Notes: a model not told the origin generated them from the sequence alone. A stretch of 64,000 bases of DNA from an uncultured Gemmatimonadales bacterium (GCA_963779755.1 CAVZZO010000001.1:2080001-2144000); one strand, 5' to 3'. Counted from the first letter of the stretch, positions 6,383-56,177 are shown. A program made the numbers and translations.

Positions 6383-6414
6383 AAAAGCCCCGTTCATTCG
6401 AGCGGGGCTTTTTT
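6383..6414. terminator. bidirectional rho-independent terminator
   Basis: AAAAGCCCCGTTC-ATTC-GAGCGGGGCTTTTTT. Confidence 0.85.
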
Positions 6415-6871
6415 ACCGCGAAGACGCGAAGGGCGCGAAGGGTCCGAATACCTTGTCTTTTGTAGGCCGGTGTTGATTTACAATTCGCCGGATCCCTCTC
6501 CCAAGGACCGGGACGTTGAAATTCATCAGCAGCGCCAGAGGCAGGCGGAGCAGTCGGAGGTAGGTTAGCACCTGGGCCAGGTGGATAGCAGTTACCTCTT
6601 CAACCGCTTTGACCTCCACCAGCAGCACCCCTTCAATCAGGAAGTCAGCCCGGTAACTGCAAGGAAGCCGGACGCCTTTGTAGAAGACCGGCAGTGCCAC
6701 CTCGCGCTGGTGTTCCAGGCGCCGCAGGGAAAGTTCGTGACCCAGGCATGTCGCATACGCGCTTTCGAGCAGGCCCGGGCCGAGGCTCCGGTGAACTTCG
6801 ATCGCCGCGCCGATCACCTGATGGGACAGACGGTCCGCAAGGTCGGACTTTTGTACTAGGTCGATTGCCAT
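6413..6871 (-). CDS. GxxExxY protein (PD-(D/E)XK nuclease-like)
   Basis: VIGAAIEVHRSLGPGLLESAY, YRADFLIEG.LLVEVKAV, AQVLTYLR, LLMNFN. Confidence 0.92.
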   Translation of the reverse strand: MAIDLVQKSDLADRLSHQVIGAAIEVHRSLGPGLLESAYATCLGHELSLRRLEHQREVALPVFYKGVRLPCSYRADFLIEGVLLVEVKAVEEVTAIHLAQVLTYLRLLRLPLALLMNFNVPVLGRGIRRIVNQHRPTKDKVFGPFAPFASSR

Positions 6872-6965
6872 GCCCCCACAGTACACATCCCAACGCCTTG
6901 AAACGTACCAAAAACTCACGATCCTCATCCTTTCGCGCTCTTCGCGAGCTTCGCGTCTTCGCGGT
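6415..6965. mobile_element. putative cassette: GxxExxY gene bracketed by 26-bp inverted CGCGAAG-array arms
   Basis: 6415-6440 ACCGCGAAGACGCGAAGGGCGCGAAG matches the reverse complement of 6940-6965 CTTCGCGAGCTTCGCGTCTTCGCGGT at 24/26; mobility is inferred. Confidence 0.55.
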
Positions 6966-6989
6966 TCCGCCCCGGCTATATTCCGGCCC

Positions 6990-8542
6990 ATGCCCGATCC
7001 CCGAAACCTCCTCGACGATCTCCACCGCCGGCAGGCCGAGGCCGAGCAGGGCGGGGGGAGCAGCGCATCGCGCAACAGCACAAACGCGGCAAGCTCACCG
7101 CCCGCGAGCGGCTCGATCTCCTCCTCGACGAGGGCAGCTTCGTCGAGTACGACCGCTTCGTAGTCCATCGGGCCACCTCGTTCGGCCTGGACCAGGAGAA
7201 ATACCCGGGCGACGGCGTCGTCACCGGCTACGGGCGCATCGACGGACGCCTGGTGTACGTCTTCTCCCAGGATTTTACCGTCTTCGGCGGCTCGCTCTCG
7301 GAAACCTTCGCCGAGAAGATCTGCAAGATCATGGACCTCGCGGTGCGCAACGGCGCGCCGGTGATCGGCCTCAACGATTCGGGCGGCGCCCGCATCCAGG
7401 AGGGCGTCGCCTCCCTCGGCGGGTACGCCGACATCTTCCTGCGCAACACCCTGGCGTCCGGCGTGGTCCCCCAGATCTCCGCCATCCTGGGCCCCTGCGC
7501 CGGCGGCGCCGTCTACAGCCCCGCCATCACCGACTTCGTGTTCATGGTCCGCAACCTGAGCTACATGTTCGTCACCGGGCCCAACGTGGTGAAGACGGTG
7601 ACGCACGAGGAGGTGAGCTTCGAGGAGCTGGGCGGCGCCGACACCCACGCCGGTACCTCGGGCATCGCCCACTTCGCCTGCGACAGCGAGCCGGAATGTC
7701 TCGCCGCCATCCGGGAACTGTTCAGCTACCTCCCCGGCAACAACGTGGACGATCCGCCCTTGCGCCCCAGCGATGATCCTCCCGGGCGGCGCGACGAGTC
7801 GCTGCTGGGGGTCATCCCCGAGGCGCCGTCCCGCCCCTACGACATGCACGAGGTCATCCGGGCCGTGGTGGACGAGGGCACCTTCTTCGAGGTGCATCGC
7901 GAGTTCGCCGGGAATCTCCTGACCGGATTCGCCCGGTTGGGCGGCCGCCCGGTGGGGCTCATCGCCAATCAGCCCGCCGTGCTGGCCGGAGTGCTGGACA
8001 TCAACGCGTCGGTCAAGGGGGCGCGGTTCATCCGTTTCTGTGATGCTTTCAATATCCCGCTCGTCACCTTTGTAGACGTCCCCGGGTTCCTGCCCGGGGT
8101 GGCCCAGGAGCACGGCGGCATCATCCGGCACGGGGCCAAGCTGCTCTACGCCTACTGCGAAGCCACCGTGCCCAAGCTGACGGTGATCACCCGCAAGGCC
8201 TATGGCGGAGCCTATGACGTGATGAGCTCCAAGCACATTCGGGGCGACCTCAACCTGGCCTGGCCCTCGGCGGAGGTGGCGGTCATGGGGCCCAAGGGCG
8301 CGGTCGAAATTCTGTTCCGCAAGGAGATCGCCGAGTCGGCCGACCCGGCCGAAGCCGCCGCCCGGTTTACCGACGACTACACCAGGCGGTTCGCGAATCC
8401 CTATAGCGCGGCGGAGCGGGGCTTCGTGGATGACGTCATCGACCCGCGCGACACCCGGCCCCGGCTGATCGACGCGCTGGCCACCCTGGCCACCAAGCGC
8501 GACCGGAATCCGCCGAAGAAGCATGGGTGTATACCGCTGTAG
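6990..8542 (+). CDS. pccB: acyl-CoA (propionyl-CoA) carboxylase beta subunit; frameshift at G-run 7053-7058
   Basis: [13 protein letters not shown] in one frame continues as [45 protein letters not shown] in the -1 frame. Confidence 0.9.
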
Positions 8543-21016: not shown

Positions 21017-21088
21017 GCAGGACGGCAGGACGGCAGGACGGCAGGACGGCAAGATTTCCCGTTTCCGCTTCCCATTTCCCTTTTCCCG
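21017..21088 (+). repeat. tandem 8-mer (GCAGGACG)x4 fused to a TTCCC-type ~7-mer array
   Basis: Directly after the rseP stop; two repeat families abut without a local complementary arm. Confidence 0.85.
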
Positions 21089-21097
21089 GCGAGTACG

Positions 21098-22735
21098 ATG
21101 CGGCGTGCGCTCATACTCCTGTTGGTCACTGCGGCTCCGTTGGCCGCTCAGACACCCGCCACGGTTCCTGAGCGCACCAACTACCAGCGCACCTCCACCA
21201 CGGCCGAGGTCGGGGCATTCCTCGACAGTCTGCAGACTATGGGGGCTCCGATCACTCTCGGTACCATGGGGCATTCGGCGGGCGGCAAGCCCCTGTATCT
21301 GGTGATCGCCTCCGAGCCGCGGATCACCAGCCCGGCCGAGGCCGCCGCGTCCGGGAAGCTGGTGGTCTACCTGCAGGCGAACATCCACGGCGGCGAGGTG
21401 GAAGGGAAGGAGGCGGTGCAGCAGATCCTGCGCGAGCTCATGGGCCCGCGCCGCTCGCTGCTGGAGAAGCTGATTATTCTGGTGGCTCCGGTCTACAACG
21501 CCGACGGGAACGATGCGCTGGGGCCGCAGGAACGGAATCGTTCGGAGCAGAACGGTCCGCCGCTGGTGGGCCAGCGGCCCGATGGGCTCAACCTCGATCT
21601 CAACCGGGACTATCTGAAGGCGGAGGCGCCCGAGACGCAGGCCTCGCTGGCGGCGATCTACGACACCTGGGATCCCGCACTGATGATGGACCTGCACACC
21701 ACCGACGGCACGCTGCACGGGTATCTGCTGACCTACTCGCCGCCGCTCGATCCCAACGGGCCCGGGGGCCCCACCGCGTTCGTTCGCGACAGTCTGTTGC
21801 CGTCGGTGCGGAAGACCCTGCAGGACCGGCATCATGAGCCGGTCTTCGACTACGGTAACGTCGAGAACCCGATGGAGCCCAAGGCGTGGACCACCTACGC
21901 GCCGCTGGGCTGGTACGGGACCAACTACGTAGGGCTGCGCGGGCGCATGGCGGTGCTGAGCGAGGCCTATTCCCACGCCGATTTCGCCACGCGCGTCCGG
22001 GTGACGCACGATTTCACGGTGGCCATTCTGGAGTATGCCGCGGCCCATGCCGGCGAGATCCGGGACATCGAGCGCGCCGCCGACCGGCAGACCACGCTGG
22101 AGGGTACGGCCACCGTTCGGCCGGCCCTGGCGGTAGAGTACCAGCCGGCCTCGCGCGGCAGCAACGAGCCCATTCCCCTGGAGATCGTCCGCCCGACGGG
22201 CGATACCGGCGTGGAAGGGCCGCGTTACCAGGGAACGGGCAAGCTGCACACCGTCTCGCTTCCGGTGTACGATCGCTTCCGCGCGAAAGAAACGCGGCCG
22301 CTGCCGGCGGGATACTTTCTCCCGGCCTCGCTCCGGGGCATCGTGGACAAGCTGCGCCTGCACGGCATCCAGGTACAACAGCTGCGGCAGGCGTTGACCG
22401 ACACGGTGGAGGCAGTGCATCCCGATAGCCTGCGCTGGAGCCCGCGGGAGTTTCAGGGGCACCACCTGCTCTCCATCCGTGCCAGCTACGCGCGCGAGGC
22501 GCGAACCTTCCCGGCCGGCACCTGGTATGTCCCCACCGGGCAGCCGCTGGGCCGGCTGGTGTTTACGCTGCTCGAGCCCGAGGGCTACGGCCTCTGGGCC
22601 TGGGGCGACTTCGACCGGATGCTGGGCTCGGAGGTCGGCGCGCTGTCGGGGCTGGTGTACGGGTCGTCCCGTGTGGGGGAGCTGCCGATCTGGCGGGCGC
22701 TCAGGGAGCCGAAGAGTGTGATGCGGACTGAGTAG
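21098..22735 (+). CDS. secreted M14-family zinc carboxypeptidase
   Basis: Signal peptide, NIHGGEVEG (HxxE), DLNRD, DLHTT. Confidence 0.88.
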   Translation: MRRALILLLVTAAPLAAQTPATVPERTNYQRTSTTAEVGAFLDSLQTMGAPITLGTMGHSAGGKPLYLVIASEPRITSPAEAAASGKLVVYLQANIHGGEVEGKEAVQQILRELMGPRRSLLEKLIILVAPVYNADGNDALGPQERNRSEQNGPPLVGQRPDGLNLDLNRDYLKAEAPETQASLAAIYDTWDPALMMDLHTTDGTLHGYLLTYSPPLDPNGPGGPTAFVRDSLLPSVRKTLQDRHHEPVFDYGNVENPMEPKAWTTYAPLGWYGTNYVGLRGRMAVLSEAYSHADFATRVRVTHDFTVAILEYAAAHAGEIRDIERAADRQTTLEGTATVRPALAVEYQPASRGSNEPIPLEIVRPTGDTGVEGPRYQGTGKLHTVSLPVYDRFRAKETRPLPAGYFLPASLRGIVDKLRLHGIQVQQLRQALTDTVEAVHPDSLRWSPREFQGHHLLSIRASYAREARTFPAGTWYVPTGQPLGRLVFTLLEPEGYGLWAWGDFDRMLGSEVGALSGLVYGSSRVGELPIWRALREPKSVMRTE

Positions 22736-22820
22736 GGTCGAAGGTCAAACTCCGGGAGTTTCCACCACGCCGATGGGGAACCCTCCCGGACTTCGACCTT
22801 CGACCTTTGACCTTCGACCT
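22735..22820. repeat. inverted 7-nt tandem-repeat hairpin (GGTCGAA / TTCGACC) between convergent genes
   Basis: GGTCGAAGGTCAAA-TCCGGGAG...CTCCCGGA-CTTCGACCTTCGACCTTTGACCTTCGACC. Confidence 0.85.
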
Positions 22821-35990: not shown

Positions 35991-36130
35991 AGGGACCAGG
36001 GACAGGGCGGGGAGCGGGAGAAGGGAATCGGGAATGGGAAGGCGTGAGGCGTGAGAGGCGACGTCTCACGCCTTACGTCTTACGGGGCGATTCCCCTTTC
36101 CCTTTTCCCGGTTCCCGTTTCCCTTTCCCG
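35991..36130. repeat. nested inverted tandem-repeat element (three repeat families)
   Basis: AGGGACC/A units, then GGGAA arm, inner GTGAGGC...CTCACGC/CTTACG hairpin, then TTCCC arm. Confidence 0.85.
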
Positions 36131-37356: not shown

Positions 37357-38768
37357 TGACGGCGAGACGGCAGGACGGCAGGACGGCAAGGCGGCAAGGC
37401 GGCACGTCGGCAAGACGGCAGGGCGGCCGGGTGTGCCTGGTGGGGGCCGCGCTCCTGGCGGTTGCCTGGGGTTGCGCGAAGCCCGCAGCTGCGCCGGGGC
37501 CGGCGGTGCCAATCGTCACCGAGCTTCCGGTCACGGAGTTCGGGTACCACAACGAGACCTCGGTCGCGGTGGATCCCGGGGCGCCGGGGCGCGTGGCCGT
37601 CGCCTACCAGGTACCGGCCAGCGTGTCCTGGTCGGCCGACAGCGGCCGGACCTGGGCCGGCGGGTCGCTTCCCGGCGTGGGGGCATTCCAGCTCTCGGGC
37701 GATCCCTCGGTCTTCTATGACGACCGGGGGCATCTGTATGCCCTCTATATCGCCTTCGACCGGCCGGACGACTACGACACCCTGGGACGCTCGGCGCACC
37801 GGAACGGAATCTTCCTGAACCGCTCCGACGACGGAGGGCAGACCTGGAACGCCCAGGCGTCGCCGGTGATCTTCCAGCCGGAGAAGCCGGGTATTCCGTT
37901 CGAAGACAAACCGATGGGCACCGCGGATGACGCGGTCCGCTCGCCCTGGCGGGGCAACGTCTATGTCGCGTGGACCGAGTTCCGCCGGCACGAGACCGTC
38001 ATCCTCTTCAGCCGCTCTACCGACGGCGGCCGGAGCTTCCAGCCGCCGATGGTCATCAGCGATCACCCGGGCAGCCCGAAGGACAGCGTGGGCGCCGCGG
38101 AGGGAACGGATGTGGCGGTGGCCGCCGACGGCACGGTGTTCGTGGTCTGGAGCGATTCCACCGGCATCCTGCTCGACCGCTCCACCGACGGAGGCGTCAC
38201 CTTCGGGGCCGACCAGCTGGTGGCGCCGACCGGCGACATCGTCTTCAACGTGGCGGGGGTGGCGCGGGTGAACGGCTATCCCAGCCTGGAGATCGACCGC
38301 TCCAGCGGGCGGATGTACATCATCTGGGTGGAGCCGCGGGGCGAGCGGACCGGTATTCTGCTGGCGCGTTCGGCCGACGGGGGCGACCGCTGGTCCCCGC
38401 CGCACGAGATCCCGGCCGCGGTGCCGCCGGCCCCCGGCAGCCGGTTCTTCGCCTGGCTGGGGCTCGACCAGAAGACCGGCGCCCTGGTGCTGGGCTATTA
38501 CGAAGCCACTGCTGGCGGGCGGCTGAGCTACAACCTGGGCTGGTCGCGGGATAGCGGTGCCAGCTTCGGCGCGTGGCCCTGGAGCCGGGAGGCGTTCCGG
38601 CCCGGCGGCGAGTTCCTGGGCGACTACACCGGGGTCGCGGCCGCGGGTGGCGTGGCCTACGCGGCCTGGACTGTGACGGCCCCGGGGGACAGTCTGAGCG
38701 CCGGGCTGCACTCGCGGGCACACCACACCCGGGTGACGGTCGGCCGGGCGATGCTGGGGGCGCCCTAG
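37356..38768 (+). CDS. BNR/Asp-box (sialidase-fold) lipoprotein
   Basis: Lipobox-like AWGC and repeated SxDGG.T/SW/F Asp-boxes; start uncertain. Confidence 0.8.
   Translation: MTARRQDGRTARRQGGTSARRQGGRVCLVGAALLAVAWGCAKPAAAPGPAVPIVTELPVTEFGYHNETSVAVDPGAPGRVAVAYQVPASVSWSADSGRTWAGGSLPGVGAFQLSGDPSVFYDDRGHLYALYIAFDRPDDYDTLGRSAHRNGIFLNRSDDGGQTWNAQASPVIFQPEKPGIPFEDKPMGTADDAVRSPWRGNVYVAWTEFRRHETVILFSRSTDGGRSFQPPMVISDHPGSPKDSVGAAEGTDVAVAADGTVFVVWSDSTGILLDRSTDGGVTFGADQLVAPTGDIVFNVAGVARVNGYPSLEIDRSSGRMYIIWVEPRGERTGILLARSADGGDRWSPPHEIPAAVPPAPGSRFFAWLGLDQKTGALVLGYYEATAGGRLSYNLGWSRDSGASFGAWPWSREAFRPGGEFLGDYTGVAAAGGVAYAAWTVTAPGDSLSAGLHSRAHHTRVTVGRAMLGAP
37359..37425 (+). repeat. tandem 8-mer array (ACGGCAGG consensus, ~8 copies)
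   Basis: ACGGCGAG ACGGCAGG ACGGCAGG ACGGCAAG GCGGCAAG GCGGCACG TCGGCAAG ACGGCAGG. Confidence 0.85.
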
Positions 38769-38825: not shown

Positions 38826-40163
38826 ATGCAAATCCAGGCCCTGCCGGGCTTTCGCGATTTCTACCCCGAGGACCTCGCTCTCCGCGCCTACATCTTCGAT
38901 ACCTGGCGGTCGGTCGCCACGCGGTACGGGTTCGAGGAGTACGACGGGCCGCCCCTGGAGCCGCTCGAGTTGTACACGGCCAAGAGCGGGGCGGAAATCG
39001 TCGCCCAGCTCTACGCCTTCACCGACAAGGGCGAGCGCGAAGTGGCGCTGCGGCCGGAAATGACCCCCACGCTGGCCCGGATGGTGGCGGCGCGGGCGGC
39101 CGGGATGAAGAAGCCCATCCGCTGGTTCTCGCTGCCCCAGCTCTTCCGCTACGAGCGGCAGCAGCGGGGCCGCCTGCGGGAGCACTTCCAGCTCAACTGC
39201 GACATCATCGGCGAGGCCAGCCCGCTGGCCGATGCGGAGATCATCGCGCTGGCGGTGGACATCATCCGGGGCTTCGGCCTGACGGCGAAGGACGTCCGGG
39301 TCCGGCTGTCGGACCGGCGGGTGTTGACGAACCTGCTGCATGCCAGCGGGGTGCCGGAGGGCAACCTGCCCGATGTCTTCGCCGGCATCGACCGGATGGA
39401 ACGGCTCAAGGAAGCCGACGTCCGAGCCATCATGGCAGGGCCTGCGCCCGGCAGCGAAGAGGCAGCCGACCGTCCGGGCGTGTTCCGGCTGGAGGATGGG
39501 CTGATCAGCGACGTGCTGTCGGTCATTCGCCTGCGAACCCTGGAAGAGATTGAAGCGCAGCTGGGGACGGCGGCGGCGGACCTCGCGCCCCTGAGGCAGG
39601 TCATGGCGGCCCTGCACGACATGGGGCTGGGCGAGTTCGTGGATCTCGACCTGACCATCGTCCGGGGCCTGGCCTACTACACCGGTACGGTCTTCGAGCT
39701 GTTCGATGCGGGCCGCACCCTGCGGGCCATCTGCGGCGGCGGCCGCTACGACCGGCTGGCCGGCGCCATCGGCGGCGTGGACCTGCCCGCCGTCGGCTTC
39801 GGGTTCGGCGACGTGGTGCTGGGCGAGCTCCTCAAGGACCGCGAGCTCCTTCCCGGGCGCGGCGCGGGGCTCGATGTGTTCATCGCCGGCGTCACCCCGG
39901 AGGACACCGGGCACGTCCTGGCCCTGGCGCATCAGCTCCGGGATGCAGGCTTCCGCGTCGAGTTTGCCCTGGGCGGCCAGGCGCTGGGCAAGCAGCTCAA
40001 GCTGGCCGACAGCCGGAACGCGTGGGCCGCCATCGTGATCGGCCCCGACGACCGGGCGAAGGGCGAGGTGGTGCTGCGGGACCTGCGGGCGAAGTCGCAA
40101 GGCGCCGTCCGCCGCGAGGAGATCACGACGGTACTGGGGCAACTGATAAGGAGTCAGGAGTGA
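38826..40163 (+). CDS. hisS: histidine--tRNA ligase
   Basis: GFRDFYP, LRPEMTPT, FRYERQQRGR.REHFQ, RGLAYYTG, GGGRYD. Confidence 0.97.
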   Translation: MQIQALPGFRDFYPEDLALRAYIFDTWRSVATRYGFEEYDGPPLEPLELYTAKSGAEIVAQLYAFTDKGEREVALRPEMTPTLARMVAARAAGMKKPIRWFSLPQLFRYERQQRGRLREHFQLNCDIIGEASPLADAEIIALAVDIIRGFGLTAKDVRVRLSDRRVLTNLLHASGVPEGNLPDVFAGIDRMERLKEADVRAIMAGPAPGSEEAADRPGVFRLEDGLISDVLSVIRLRTLEEIEAQLGTAAADLAPLRQVMAALHDMGLGEFVDLDLTIVRGLAYYTGTVFELFDAGRTLRAICGGGRYDRLAGAIGGVDLPAVGFGFGDVVLGELLKDRELLPGRGAGLDVFIAGVTPEDTGHVLALAHQLRDAGFRVEFALGGQALGKQLKLADSRNAWAAIVIGPDDRAKGEVVLRDLRAKSQGAVRREEITTVLGQLIRSQE

Positions 40164-40228
40164 GGAATGGGGGTTGAAGGGGCACCGCTTGACCTCCTCG
40201 ACCCTCTCGACCCCCTCGACCTGTTGAC
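40149..40228. repeat. 7-mer (AGGAGTG) array followed by 9-mer (TCGACCCnC) array
   Basis: AGGAGTC AGGAGTG AGGAATG ... TTGACCTCC TCGACCCTC TCGACCCCC TCGACCTGT. Confidence 0.7.
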
Positions 40229-41717: not shown

Positions 41718-43033
41718 TGGCGGGCAAGACGGCAGGACGGCAGGACGGCAGGGTGGATACGCAGGCGCTGTTGCGCGACGCCGGCATCGAGTGGCAGGGC
41801 GGATGCCTGGCCATGGCCGGGGTGTCGCTGGAGCGGATCGCGGACGAGGTGGGCACGCCGGTGTTCGTCTACAACGCCGAGGTGGTCCGGGTCCGCTACC
41901 TGGCGCTGACGCGGGCGCTCGAGGGGCTGCCGCACCGGCTGCACTATGCGGTGAAGGCCAACAGCAATCTCGCCATCCTCCACCTGCTCTACGGTCTGGG
42001 CGCCGGCGCCGATATCGTCTCGGCGGGCGAGATGCACCGGGCACTGGCGGCGGGCGTGGCGCCGGATCACATCGTCTTCAGCGGGGTGGGGAAGTCACGC
42101 GACGAGCTGCGGCAGGCGGTAGCGGCGCAGCTGGCGCACATCAACGTCGAGTCGCTGGAAGAGTTGGAGCTGCTGGAGGAAGTCGCCCGTGAGGCGGGGC
42201 GGCGGGTGCCGGTCGGCATCCGGGTGAATCCGGATGTGACGGCCGAAACCCATCCCTACATCAGCACCGGGAAGAGCGGCATCAAGTTCGGGGTGCCCAG
42301 CGATCAGGTGGAGGCCGCGGCCGACCTGATCCGCGCCTCCCGCCGGCTGGAGCTGGTCTGCCTCGCCATGCATCTGGGAAGCCAGCTGAGCTCACCCGAG
42401 CCCTACGCCAACGGCATCGAGCGTCTGCTGGAGATGCTGGCGGCCGTGCGGGCGCGAGGCCTTGGGTCGGTGCATTCCCTGGATATCGGCGGCGGCCTGG
42501 GCATCCGCTACGCCGGCGAGGATGAGATGGACCTCGCGGCCTTCGCCCGGGCGGTGATACCCCCGCTCCAGGCCACCGGCCTGACCGTGTGCCTGGAACC
42601 GGGCCGGTTTCTGGTGGGGAGCGCCGGAGTGCTGCTGGGCAGCGTGCTGTATCGCAAGCACTCGGGGGGCAAGGAATTCGTGGTCGGTGATGCCGCCATG
42701 AACGACCTGCTGCGGCCCAGCCTGTATCATGCCCATCACGAGATCGTCCCGCTGGCTGCGCACACCGGCGAGCTGGCCACCCGCGACGTGGTCGGGCCCA
42801 TCTGTGAGACCGGCGATTTTCTCGCCCTGGAACGCCCGCTGCCGGCGCTGGAGCGGGGGGAACGGTTCGCGGTCCTGGGAGCGGGCGCCTACGGGTTCGT
42901 CATGAGCTCCAACTACAATACCAGGCCCCGGGCCCCGGAGGTGCTGGTGGATCGGGGGCGCCACGCGGTGATCCGGCCACGGGAGCCGCTGGAGCAACTC
43001 TGGGCCGGCGAAGTCGTCTCTCCTTTCAATTGA
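41717..43033 (+). CDS. lysA: diaminopimelate decarboxylase
   Basis: [38 protein letters not shown]. Confidence 0.96.
41722..41752 (+). repeat. tandem 8-mer (GGCAGGAC) array in the lysA 5' end
   Basis: GGCAAGAC GGCAGGAC GGCAGGAC GGCAGG. Confidence 0.8.
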
Positions 43034-52673: not shown

Positions 52674-52702
52674 TTGAGAATCCACCGGCTATCCCTTATA
52701 AT
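52674..52702 (+). promoter_or_regulatory. sigma70 promoter of ssrA
   Basis: TTGAGA-17 nt-TATAAT. Confidence 0.85.
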
Positions 52703-52713
52703 TATGGCGTCTC

Positions 52714-53075
52714 GGGGGCGATCGGTTTCGACGGGTTCGTTGAAGAGATTGCTGCGTGCCCAGGTCCAGGTTCCTGGATAAACCACTTGGAACGCTTTAA
52801 CTGCCAACTCTGAACTGGCACTGGCTGCGTAAGCTGAGCTAAGCTCGCTTCACGCTCCTCCGATGCATGAAGCCCGTCCGGGGCGCTGTGCATTGGATCG
52901 CAAATCCGGACTAGCCCGCGGTGCCGCCCCGGCACCAAGGGTGAGACTTCAGGGGCTGGTTTCCCGATGGGTCGGTTTGGCACCCGCCGGGCGACGACGC
53001 AGAAAGCCGAGCCTACGCACGTAGATGCGGTTTTGGACACTTACTCGGACCAGGGTTCGATTCCCTGCGCCTCCA
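52714..53075 (+). ncRNA. ssrA: tmRNA; tag (A)ANSELALAA* at 52803-52832
   Basis: 5' GGGGGCG pairs with 3' CGCCTCC-A including G3:U; GGTTTCGAC D-loop motif; T-arm CAGGGTTCGATTCCCTG; TAACT before the resume codon; CCA not encoded. Confidence 0.96.
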
Positions 53076-53110
53076 TGAAAAAAACCGGCCAAGGCCGGTT
53101 TTTTTTCATG
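53074..53110. terminator. bidirectional rho-independent terminator
   Basis: CATG-A7-CCGGCC-AA-GGCCGG-T8-CATG. Confidence 0.9.
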
Positions 53111-53680
53111 GGCGGTAGAGGCGGTAGAGGCGGTAAGGGCGGTAAGGCGGGGTGGCGGGACAGGCTTCAGGGAGCCGCCGGTGGATTCCCCAGTGAGCGA
53201 TACAGCGCCCACGTCACCACCCCTGCGTGATTCCGTAGCTTGTCAATGGTCTCCCAATTCTCCTGAGGCAGATAGCCCAGATCGCGGGCCAGTCGGAGAC
53301 AATAGGACAGTTCTGACAAGGACCCCAGGGAGATGTCCAGAAACCTGCGGAACTCTCTTCTCCCGCGCTTCGCTGAGCCCTCAGCGATATTGACAGCCGC
53401 CGAGAAGGCCGAACGCCGCGCCTGCGCCATGAGGCCGTAGGTCTCCTCCCGGGGCCAGCGCCCGGTTGCTCGATAGACCTCCAGGACCAGCCGGTGGCAC
53501 AGCCTCCAGGCCTCGAAACGCTCATATGGCGGCATTCTGAATACCTGGCCCTGAGCGTCAACCCAGTATCAACTCCGCCATCAGCACTCCAATCCCACAG
53601 CACCCTCCTCAGCCGCCCTTATCGCCTCTGCCGCCCCTGCCGCCCTTACCGCCCCTACCGCCTTTCCCGCCTTGCCCGCC
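53111..53680. mobile_element. putative cassette: four-helix-bundle gene bracketed by inverted 9-mer arrays
   Basis: Left (GGCGGTAGA)-type units at 53111-53150; seven right (CCGCCCCTA)-type units at 53613-53680; mobility is inferred. Confidence 0.55.
53167..53535 (-). CDS. four helix bundle protein (23S rRNA IVP / Avd-like family)
   Basis: Y.RFEAW..C..LV.EVY..T..WPREETYGL.AQ.RRSA.S...NIAEG, F.RFL.IS.GSL.EL. Confidence 0.93.
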   Translation of the reverse strand: MPPYERFEAWRLCHRLVLEVYRATGRWPREETYGLMAQARRSAFSAAVNIAEGSAKRGRREFRRFLDISLGSLSELSYCLRLARDLGYLPQENWETIDKLRNHAGVVTWALYRSLGNPPAAP

Positions 53681-53721
53681 CCCCAACCTTTCCGTCCCCC
53701 CGCCCGACTAATCTTCCAGCA

Positions 53722-54276
53722 ATGACTTCACCGGCCGATGCGACGGAGCGCTCCGATCGGGAGCTGGCGGACCGGGTGTGGCGGGATGGGGATGAGCAGG
53801 CCTTCCGACTGCTCTACCGCCGCCATACCCCGCGACTCTACCAGCTGGTGCTCCGGCTCCTGGGGCATGCCGAGCAGGACGCCGAAGACGTCGTGCAGGA
53901 CACCTGGGTCCAGGTGGTGGAGCGGCTGGGGGAGTTTCGCTGGGAATCGGCCTTCGGCACCTGGCTCACCGCCATCGGGCTCAATCGGGCCCGGGATCAC
54001 CTGCGGCGGGCAGGGCGGCGGACCATGGTCCCGCTCCCGGATGGTTTGCCCGGGAAGCGCGGCGGGATGGCCGAATGGGTGGACCTGGAGCGTGCCATCG
54101 CGCAGCTGCCGGAGGGGTACCGCACGGTGCTGGTGCTGCACGATCTCGAGGGCCTGACGCATGAGGAAATCGGTGTCACGCTCGGTGTCACCGCGGGAAC
54201 CTCGAAGAGCCAGTTGTTTGCCGCCCGCAGGGCAATGCGGGGCCTGCTGGCCCCGGCTGGAGGAAAGCATGTCTGA
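53722..54276 (+). CDS. ECF RNA polymerase sigma factor
   Basis: DAEDVVQD.W, F.TWL..I..N, LPEGYR.VLVL.DLEGLTHEEI...LGV..GTSKSQL. Confidence 0.93.
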   Translation: MTSPADATERSDRELADRVWRDGDEQAFRLLYRRHTPRLYQLVLRLLGHAEQDAEDVVQDTWVQVVERLGEFRWESAFGTWLTAIGLNRARDHLRRAGRRTMVPLPDGLPGKRGGMAEWVDLERAIAQLPEGYRTVLVLHDLEGLTHEEIGVTLGVTAGTSKSQLFAARRAMRGLLAPAGGKHV

Positions 54277-54833: not shown

Positions 54834-56069
54834 ATGCGTATCGCGCCGATCATGCTGGCGGCCGGCCTGCTGGCGATGGGGGCTCCGCTCCAGGGGCAGG
54901 GAGCCCCGGTCAGGTCATGTCCCGGACACCGGTTGCCGGTGGCCGATCTGGGCATCGAGCACTGGAGTTGCGACTGCACATTCGAGGTTTCCAGCGAAGG
55001 GGCGACCCAGCGCTGGTACTTCCGGGGCGAGCCCACCCTGCTCGACATCCGGCCGGGCGGCCCGTCCGACGGCAAGCTGCGCGACGGCGATGTGCTCGTC
55101 GCGGTGAACGGTCTGCTCATCACTACCCGTGAGGCGGGGCTGCGGCTCGCCACCCTGAAGCCGGGGGAAGCGGTGCGGCTCACCATCCGCCGCAACGGCC
55201 AGGAACGGCAGGTCACGATTGTTCCGGGGTCCCGGTGTCCGCCGGAGGCGCCGGTCGCGCCCGAGGCTCCCGCGGTCACGATCGTCCGCCCGGCGCCCGC
55301 CGCCGCGGTGGCGACTCCCGCGCCGCCGGCGAGGGTGTCGGTCGCCGCCGCCCCCCAACCGGCGCCTCCGGCACCGGCGGCAGTCGCGGCCCCGGCGCCG
55401 CCGGAGGCCCCCCGCCCCTGGTTCGGCTTCGGGATCACCTGTTCGCATTGCGAGATCCTGGGCGGCAACCACTGGCGCTTCAGCAGCTATCCGGAGATCT
55501 ATTCAGTGGATCCGGGGAGCCCGGCCGACCGGGCAGGCCTGCACAAAGGCGACGAGCTGATCGCTATCGACGGGCTGTCGTTGCTCAAGAGTGAGGGCGC
55601 GGCCCGGTTCGATGCGCTGGAGCCGGGTGAGACCGTCCGCTGGACCTACCGGCGGAATGGGCGGACAGACACGGTACGCATTACCGCCGAATCGGCACCG
55701 GGGTTCCATGTGTTCACCGTGCAGCCGGATCGGATCGCCCAGCATGAAGTCGCGCTGGCCCTCACCGACTCGATCGTGCAGCGGCTGCGGGGGACCTCCA
55801 TCCACCTGGCCGAGGTGACGCGCGAACAGCGCGAGGCCATGGCGCGGGCGGTGCAGGCCGAGCTGGCGGCGGCGCAGGCCCGGACGGTGGTGGGACAGGC
55901 CGCTCCGGTCCCCTCCGCCCCCTCCCGTCTCCGCTACACCGGTTCGCTGGGAAACGTGGATGTGGACGTGCGCGGTCCCGGATCGGTGGAGGTCACCCGG
56001 GACGACGGAACGGGCGAGTTGGTGATCCGCACGGCGGACGCGGTGATCCGGCTCAAAACAAAGGACTGA
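54834..56069 (+). CDS. secreted double-PDZ protein with Pro/Ala linker
   Basis: Signal peptide; PGGPS.GKLRDGDVLVAVNG and PGSPADRAGLHKGDELIAIDG. Confidence 0.85.
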   Translation: MRIAPIMLAAGLLAMGAPLQGQGAPVRSCPGHRLPVADLGIEHWSCDCTFEVSSEGATQRWYFRGEPTLLDIRPGGPSDGKLRDGDVLVAVNGLLITTREAGLRLATLKPGEAVRLTIRRNGQERQVTIVPGSRCPPEAPVAPEAPAVTIVRPAPAAAVATPAPPARVSVAAAPQPAPPAPAAVAAPAPPEAPRPWFGFGITCSHCEILGGNHWRFSSYPEIYSVDPGSPADRAGLHKGDELIAIDGLSLLKSEGAARFDALEPGETVRWTYRRNGRTDTVRITAESAPGFHVFTVQPDRIAQHEVALALTDSIVQRLRGTSIHLAEVTREQREAMARAVQAELAAAQARTVVGQAAPVPSAPSRLRYTGSLGNVDVDVRGPGSVEVTRDDGTGELVIRTADAVIRLKTKD

Positions 56070-56130
56070 GAGCAAAGGACTGAGAGAAAAGGGAGCGGCA
56101 CGGTTCTTTTCTCTCAGTCCTTTCGTCTTT
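56059..56130. repeat. 14-mer duplication forming a 17-bp inverted stem
   Basis: CAAAGGACTGAGAG x2; AAAGGACTGAGAGAAAA / TTTTCTCTCAGTCCTTT. Confidence 0.8.
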
Positions 56131-56177
56131 CCTCCCCGCATCTGGACCTTGGCCCCGCCGGGGGCTTATTTAGGGCC

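Follow-up and report, generated by a model that had tools for sequence, protein, structure and literature searches.

The four-helix-bundle gene that lies behind the tmRNA gene (ssrA) of an uncultured Gemmatimonadales bacterium is bracketed by inverted tandem arrays of a 9-base repeat. Eight such cassettes, together with hundreds of gene-less arrays in the same genome, are likely to represent a self-spreading family that occupies gene junctions without a recognisable transposase. On balance we lean towards a reading in which gene-bearing palindromic elements and their gene-less derivatives sit at gene junctions in the manner of REPINs and their RAYT, the encoded protein reading its own repeat in trans. 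The features of the ssrA cassette, in coordinates of the window (the whole 64,000-nucleotide stretch of DNA that was analysed), are as follows.

52714 to 53075, plus strand: tmRNA gene (ssrA) with tag ANSELALAA; host neighbour, outside the element
53072 to 53110, no strand: palindromic A7-stem-T8 hairpin, a bidirectional terminator predicted from sequence and fold; host feature
53111 to 53150, plus strand: left arm, purine-rich 9-mer array GGCGGTAnn, 4.6 copies (tandem-repeat and arm-pairing analysis)
53167 to 53535, minus strand: four-helix-bundle gene, 122 aa, TIGR02436/PF05635 (profile matches)
53534 to 53561, minus strand: weak promoter-like site TTGACG-16-CAGAAT for the cargo gene (9/12 matches)
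53613 to 53682, plus strand: right arm, inverted pyrimidine-rich 9-mer array, about 7 copies (repeat and pairing analysis)
53709 to 53714, plus strand: TAATCT, a -10-like box 7 nt upstream of the next gene's ATG; candidate leaderless promoter, from sequence
53722 to 54276, plus strand: ECF sigma factor gene, host neighbour (profile match)

The inverted 9-mer arrays that an earlier note had described around the antisense gene are real, and the units start, as it had stated, at the base after the ssrA hairpin. The right arm has a core of period 9 at 53613–53671 (6.6 copies), from which the array continues to 53682. The two arms are 76–88% complementary over 32–54 nt, and the RNA fold of 53111–53682 has a z-score of −3.95, with none of 100 shuffles equally good; by arm pairing and fold, the cassette is an S23p-family ORF inside terminal inverted repeats able to form a stem. 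The flanks of the gene share 28 inverted 7-mers versus 2 direct ones, and a score of 26 inverted 7-mers was reached by 1 of 516 control genes (300–480 nt). The ssrA hairpin has a predicted fold of −25.4 kcal/mol; a terminator scan returned no hits and did not list it. The promoter-like site ahead of the cargo gene is uncertain because it overlaps the cargo start codon. Just upstream of ssrA, at 52674–52702, there is a strong sigma-70-type promoter (TTGAGA-17-TATAAT). Contigs from three soil sequencing runs were short pieces only, with no joint spanning the cassette.

The long predicted stem also fits an mRNA-level intervening sequence (IVS), in which the arms would pair in the transcript, RNase III would cut the stem in the way it does in 23S rRNA, the hairpins would be kept at the ends of genes by selection for RNA processing, stability or termination, and the protein would be an RNA-binding regulator whose spread is secondary. 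A Coxiella IVS with the same cargo family, heptamers in its 5′ region and cleavage by RNase III in vitro, as described in PMC4990558, speaks in its favour. We nevertheless consider this reading unlikely. A terminator is predicted before the left arm and a cargo promoter is predicted inside the right arm, so neither transcript obviously contains both arms, and G-U pairs between arms are not in excess over A-C pairs either on the cargo strand (28 versus 23 of 61, p = 0.58) or in the host transcript (30 versus 19 of 53, p = 0.15).

The 122-aa protein scores 94.9 bits against TIGR02436 (cut-off 24), above the curated cut-off, and 100 bits against PF05635 (cut-off 33.8), and it matches Xcc0516 (2GSC) with an E value of 1.4e-20. 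Its net charge (K+R−D−E) is +6, and its single-sequence structure model has a pLDDT of 51. Nearly all of its closest relatives are from Gemmatimonadota, and no relative was found in phages. Xcc0516 is a pentamer (PMC4990558), and by homology the protein would form a homopentamer. The earlier note had tied the family both to proteins of 23S rRNA IVSs and to Avd of diversity-generating retroelements; the PF05635 match upholds the family link, and the likeness to Avd, a pentameric, positively charged barrel (PMC6182149, PMC10053308), reduces to distant homology (21.2 bits against the Avd equivalog model) beside a net positive charge. Unlike Avd systems as described there, the score falls below the Avd cut-off of 80 and the genome has no reverse transcriptase. 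Intact four-helix genes are under purifying selection, since site-orthologues have dN/dS values of 0.04–0.12, with many pairs saturated. Low values at long-held sites also fit a host-useful gene and count towards the mRNA-level IVS.

The genome contains eight PF05635 genes above the cut-off, one broken copy and one more distant four-helix homologue without evident arms. Both arms are present at seven of the eight intact paralogues, in units of 7, 8 or 9 bases; the eighth has a downstream 11-mer arm only and, upstream, the end of what we take to be an IS. All nine PF05635 matches have protein genes, ssrA or this IS-like end as neighbours, and none lies inside 23S rRNA. The eight own paralogues are only 23–66% identical pairwise, and therefore no recent cassette burst is indicated. 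At one site (G000:C3:1584081-1585573) two four-helix cassettes of different clades, with 8-mer and 7-mer arms, flank a single gene that presumably is crcB-like.

We extended the census to 114 loci (8 own, the 80 closest relatives and 26 other loci of the family, after removal of two duplicates of own loci, a duplicate record and a locus that gave no match), 101 of which have full flanks. Arms were scored as inverted 7-mers common to both flanks, with 516 of the genome's own genes of similar size (300–480 nt) as controls. A score of at least 8 is reached by 97 of the 101 loci, but also by 149/516 control genes and 24/77 far flanks, and for this reason a cut-off of at least 15 was adopted, which 76/101 four-helix loci and 21/516 controls pass; at least 26 is reached by 51/101 loci versus 1/516 controls. 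The earlier note had looked to a paralogue census for its repeat-bracketed format, and the format recurs in it. The median number of units per arm is 4.7–4.9, ranging from 2 to over 20. Among four cyanobacterial plasmid copies inspected, inverted arms are clear in two, one of which lies in a cmr2-cmr3 junction; the arrays of the remaining two fail to pair. On cyanobacterial plasmids, four-helix genes with repeat flanks lie in cas6-cas4 and cmr2-cmr3 junctions (L338, L339), and such genes may explain the IVP genes of cas loci (described in PMC3936711). Seven divergent PF05635 genes in the genus of G087 (L263, L268, L271, L272, L275, L278, L282) are without clear arms, and possibly represent domesticated lineages.

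A second protein family uses the same format. The sister cassette, and two gene-less hairpins found in the window by repeat scan, are:

6415 to 6965, no strand: sister cassette with GxxExxY gene, behind rpsA; arms 6415–6448 and 6932–6965
6413 to 6871, minus strand: antisense GxxExxY gene, TIGR04256, 135 bits
27545 to 27638, no strand: gene-less hairpin with 7-mer arms GGGAAAC / CCCTTTC
56059 to 56135, no strand: gene-less hairpin, AAAGGACTGAGAG arm and its complement

The locus at 6383–6990 has the layout claimed for it, in which an S1-domain gene (rpsA) is followed by an A/T-tailed hairpin (fold −24.2 kcal/mol), arms that are 85% complementary, the antisense TIGR04256 gene, and TATATT 7 nt ahead of the ATG of the following gene. 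The proposal that two unrelated protein families, four-helix and GxxExxY, share one repeat-bracketed format is thus supported. Judged by eye, GxxExxY genes in the order have arm families of their own, mostly 9-mer-like, and no third cargo family is evident among 20 bracketed spans of this genome inspected in the same way. A GxxExxY match is missing from several genomes with 3–10 four-helix genes (G010, G017, G019); because the one is missing where the other abounds, we regard them as parallel systems. Some GxxExxY loci have long direct repeats at their borders. In an RHS locus (G000:C3:1488900-1507500), cassettes and fragments are each bounded by a 32-bp direct repeat that is the RHS core (WYDPRTGRFLT codons) and looks like a long target duplication amplified later. 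Beside tRNA-Gln (G000:C3:1553490-1554230), the repeat at the borders of a cassette corresponds to some 33 bp of the tRNA 3′ end, and an insert of about 80 bp interrupts its far copy. The tRNA-Gln and RHS repeats have GATCCCAGGA in common.

Most arms enclose no gene at all. With junctions defined by a home-made gene call, a 7–11-mer array is present at 589 of 3578 junctions of this genome, and in mixed arm pairs the purine-rich arm comes first in 128/153. No more than 10 nt separates the start of the purine-rich arm from a stop codon in 236/346 (median 3 nt), and convergent junctions are the most occupied (114/427), a placement that the mRNA-level IVS would also account for. Complementary arm pairs without a gene number 103; the median length of their loops is 30 nt, and most of these loops are site-unique. 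Elsewhere in the window there are more arms and hairpins without a gene, belonging to several families (21017–21087, 22735–22820, 37358–37431, 40150–40221 and 41723–41752) and a nested gene-less repeat element (36000–36130). Hairpins of the CGCAGATT family (G000:C1:695761-727953 and C3:552144) have related loops of at least 100 nt, some in tandem, and, unlike the other families, look as if they were copied as units.

These surveys trim the format proposed earlier, which had begun with a highly expressed gene and a bidirectional terminator: on the outer side of an arm, at a distance of up to 60 nt, an A5/T5 run occurs at 2/81 cassette loci, so this prefix is not part of it. The position behind ssrA is not part of it either, with a four-helix gene there in 0/19 relatives (two of these loci extend only ~700 nt beyond ssrA), and ssrA is not a specific target. 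The antisense orientation of the gene holds as a bias, the downstream neighbour being on the opposite strand at 56/75 cassettes, and not as a rule. For the candidate leaderless promoter of the next gene, what stands is an enrichment of -10-like boxes ahead of the next start (90/536 beside arms versus 166/1626) and nothing beyond it.

Arms may also enclose a host gene. A small gene before what we take, from motifs, to be dnaE2 is bracketed by matched arms in 20 of 27 congeners; 2 others have a single arm and 5 have neither. A gene is thus not identified as cargo by the mere presence of arms around it. Since most arms enclose no gene and some bracket a host gene, the system amounts to a family of repeat elements that occasionally carry cargo, and is more than a gene cassette. 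The arm unit around the gene varies by species and the left arm often provides the ATG (L284-L310); in L286 and L287 an extra, solo arm of four units lies in frame within it. At the end of the neighbouring gene, presumably imuB by its motifs, an old duplication (18/21 bp) flanks one arm.

The bracketed host gene, the solo in-frame arm and the old imuB-end duplication would suit a telomerase-like enzyme that extends, on each strand, the 3′ ends left by nicks or breaks with new repeats, giving purine-first polarity with host DNA as the loop. The arm polarity is like that of a head-to-head telomere fusion. We regard such an enzyme as highly improbable, however, on account of the missing reverse transcriptase and of the arm-free alleles and loop sequences described below. 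The arms around the host gene and the solo arm, which lies at a unit-like site, are likewise what would be seen if the repeats were passive, slippage-prone recombination handles (slippage, template switching, ectopic gene conversion) on which four-helix and GxxExxY genes hitch-hike by homologous exchange with no reading of the repeat. Site-unique loops, copy numbers from 2 to over 20 and the lack of target duplication are also consistent with passive repeats, as is the occurrence of either orientation at one junction.

One point that makes passive repeats a distinctly doubtful explanation is that the repeat period tracks the protein clade, as read from sequence, and not the host. On a quick tree of 114 proteins (124 columns, with the query clade oversampled), the 7-mer label changes 2 times versus a shuffled mean of 17.8 (0/500 shuffles), and period 7 is found at 0/67 labelled loci among the 80 closest relatives versus 15/25 other labelled loci of the family. 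Host ancestry does not account for this pattern, because one genome, ours, carries four paralogues of each class (7-mer and other period). The expectation that protein clade and repeat unit co-vary is therefore confirmed for period. The association runs deep in the tree and across hosts, although linkage alone could give part of it. Array abundance accompanies gene presence as well: the clade's 8-mer arrays have a median of 0 in 8 family genomes without a PF05635 match and 25.5 in 22 genomes with one, these kin not being independent; exceptions are one genome with 20 array matches and no detected gene, and two genomes with the gene and no arrays. Resident units are over-represented among exact arrays in this genome (p = 0.006), with 4/8 resident consensus units found 0–1 times as exact arrays. 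GGACTGA, the most frequent 7-mer not shared with resident cassettes, occupies 40 sites and has no resident cassette of its own. A TCGA motif in the arms of one family is not a general feature; it is absent from eight of nine families here, and in the ninth TCGA belongs to the unit itself.

Comparison of orthologous junctions revealed turnover. Behind ssrA, 5/19 relatives (L003, L018, L019, L020, L025) have hairpins of other families directly after the gene, and L020 and L023 have the same downstream gene with the hairpin present in the one versus absent in the other (both judged by eye). Arm remnants and empty sites, on which the earlier note had staked its proposal, were thus found in relatives, both at ssrA and at two junctions in a related genus. 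From 81 foreign cassettes tried, 24 orthologous junctions were located in this genome, of which 18 are distinct, and 13 of the 18 hold an arm, hairpin or cassette by eye, often of another family. At the rpsA junction, the GxxExxY cassette of the window is replaced in L038 by a four-helix cassette with 8-mer arms. Several junctions carry cassettes in both orientations. Opposite-orientation proteins at one junction are only 49–60% identical, which suggests separate arrivals; the closest same-orientation pairs are 69–94% identical, though some same-orientation pairs are as distant as opposite ones, and inversion in place is disfavoured.

Decay of the gene-bearing form was followed in a genus of 28 genomes (the genus of G022 is represented by one genome only). 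One junction gave 30 loci, reduced to 23 two-sided ones when 6 one-sided loci and 1 duplicate were set aside. Cargo is intact in 7, frameshifted or truncated in 4 and internally deleted in 5; the others comprise 1 gene-less hairpin, 1 single arm, 2 armless alleles and 3 loci with another gene, which we take to be methyltransferase-like. In L195, one of the internally deleted loci, both arms survive, as do the inner start and the 3′ end of the gene, and L185 is a clean armless allele. At a second junction of the genus, 19/28 loci are two-sided and fall into 11 hairpins and 8 alleles without arms or loop; the latter reject, for the junction tested, the idea that the loop is host DNA, which a repeat-adding enzyme would require. 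The loops resemble the inner ends of cassettes instead: the ends of 13 gene-less hairpin loops score a mean of 20.4 (minimum 19.8) against cognate cassettes and a mean of 17.7 (maximum 19.3, all below cognate) against 70 foreign ones, a match that is modest because shuffled cognate ends (mean 18.3) reach 21.2. Internal-deletion derivatives of the gene-bearing form are accordingly present, by the decay series and, with modest margin, the loop-end match, and the retention of gene pieces in deletion intermediates is a further point against repeat addition.

The loop at the second junction is homologous between species, but the arms on either side of it consist of GGAACGC in one set of species and of GGA(A/G)TGC in another. 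Genome-wide counts of the two variants in four congeners are 23:3, 43:1, 0:99 and 1:58, so that the variant at the junction is the dominant one throughout each genome; a fifth congener genome favours GGATTGC. Neither this genome-wide switch nor the replacement of one family by another at a single junction is explained by an mRNA-level IVS. Loops of 55–57 nt and four full units per arm recur in 7 of 13 independent hairpins from two congeners (spacing was one of the grounds for their choice), a near-constancy unexpected of passive repeats.

Among candidate mobilisers, a reverse transcriptase was sought and no PF00078 match was found in this 97% complete genome. Of its three Y1 genes, all taken to be IS200-type, two were placed there by scan and fall short of the RAYT cut-off; the one looked at in detail carries repeats of a different kind. 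Reverse transcriptase and RAYT are therefore rejected as mobilisers, and an arm-bracketed transposase was not found in this genome. One IS200-type Y1 gene (L336:1370-1980, G000:C1:953128) is flanked by a direct repeat, about 40 bp long and palindromic at its head, which is REP-like and unrelated to the tandem arms. Target duplications were seen at 0/58 cassettes and 1/103 hairpins, which is the control level, and exact repeats of at least 11 nt in 0/126; target duplication is rejected as a general rule, though old insertions may have lost it.

The reading we favour, elements that spread with a repeat-reading protein acting in trans, suggests the following course. Elements whose arms are inverted arrays of a 7–11-base word would insert at junctions, mostly just behind a stop codon. 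The four-helix-bundle protein would act in trans on the repeat of its own family, and a pentamer, predicted by homology to Xcc0516, could bind the 4–5 copies of an arm. It may then present the ends of the element to host enzymes of repair or recombination, which would carry out the chemistry. Once at a junction, a cassette would shed its gene, and the remaining hairpin would be multiplied or rewritten in trans, as REPINs are with RAYT, and GxxExxY nuclease cassettes would be a parallel system using the same sites. Tentatively, and with less confidence, we extend this to a widespread class of replicators free of transposase, integrase and reverse transcriptase, in which an Avd-like pentamer reads about five words per arm (one word family per clade) and drives junction insertion and arm renewal. 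Such a class might be the source of the 7–11-mers of Xanthomonas, cyanobacteria and Gemmatimonadota, of protein-coding rRNA IVSs and of stray "IVP" genes in cas operons.

The cassette is no member, as defined, of any known family tested, and protein-coding rRNA IVSs look like one case of it. Like the ORF-bearing 23S rRNA IVSs of Coxiella and Leptospira (S23p) described in PMC4990558, it combines a long stem whose loop encodes a PF05635 protein with tandem heptamers by the ORF, patchy spread and gene decay; unlike them, it lies at protein-gene junctions or behind ssrA (0/9 matches in rRNA), with 7–11-mer arms on both sides, many families per genome and hundreds of gene-less arrays. With REPIN/RAYT systems as presented in PMC3116915 and 10.1101/2021.07.10.451892 it shares extragenic inverted doublets of about 100 bp in hundreds of copies, with conserved arms and a variable spacer, and several families per genome, each tied to a repeat-flanked protein gene. 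It differs from them in that the arms are tandem arrays of non-palindromic 7–11-mers and not REP palindromes, the partner is a PF05635 four-helix or PF13366 PD-(D/E)XK-family protein and not an HUH/Y1 tyrosine transposase, and the gene-bearing form occurs at many different junctions and decays into hairpins. The heptamers GGGAATC and GGGGA(C/T)T of Xanthomonas and Nostoc, as reported in PMC4692102, have the same preference for four units, inverted pairs, and a G-rich strand behind stops with a C-rich strand before starts. For these, G-quadruplexes are proposed in that paper, whereas many units here are without G-tracts (GTCGCTA, CGCAGATTA).

The accessible text of PMC4692102 names no cargo gene or protein partner and has no occurrence of "helix bundle", and that of MacGregor 2015 (PMC4679880) does not name four-helix proteins. 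No link of four-helix or GxxExxY genes to inverted tandem arms outside rRNA was found in literature that consisted mostly of open-access main texts (e.g. PMC3936711, PMC5524665). The parts, rRNA IVSs and the Xanthomonas and Nostoc heptamers, are in print, and their link to armed cassettes was not found within that literature. To this the present comparisons add the coupling of clade and period, the interchange at rpsA, the genome-wide variant switch, the match of loops to cassettes and the bracketed host gene.

The finding joins three loose ends, namely a common family of small proteins that has a solved structure but no function, the abundant repeats of heptamer type, to which Rehm et al. assigned no settled role, and the origin of protein-coding rRNA IVSs. 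Four-helix or GxxExxY genes inside operons, as at cas6-cas4 and cmr2-cmr3, may be junction insertions and not members of the pathway. If the pentamer does read tandem words, it would be a new sequence-reading scaffold and would offer a hint at the role of Avd before retroelements.
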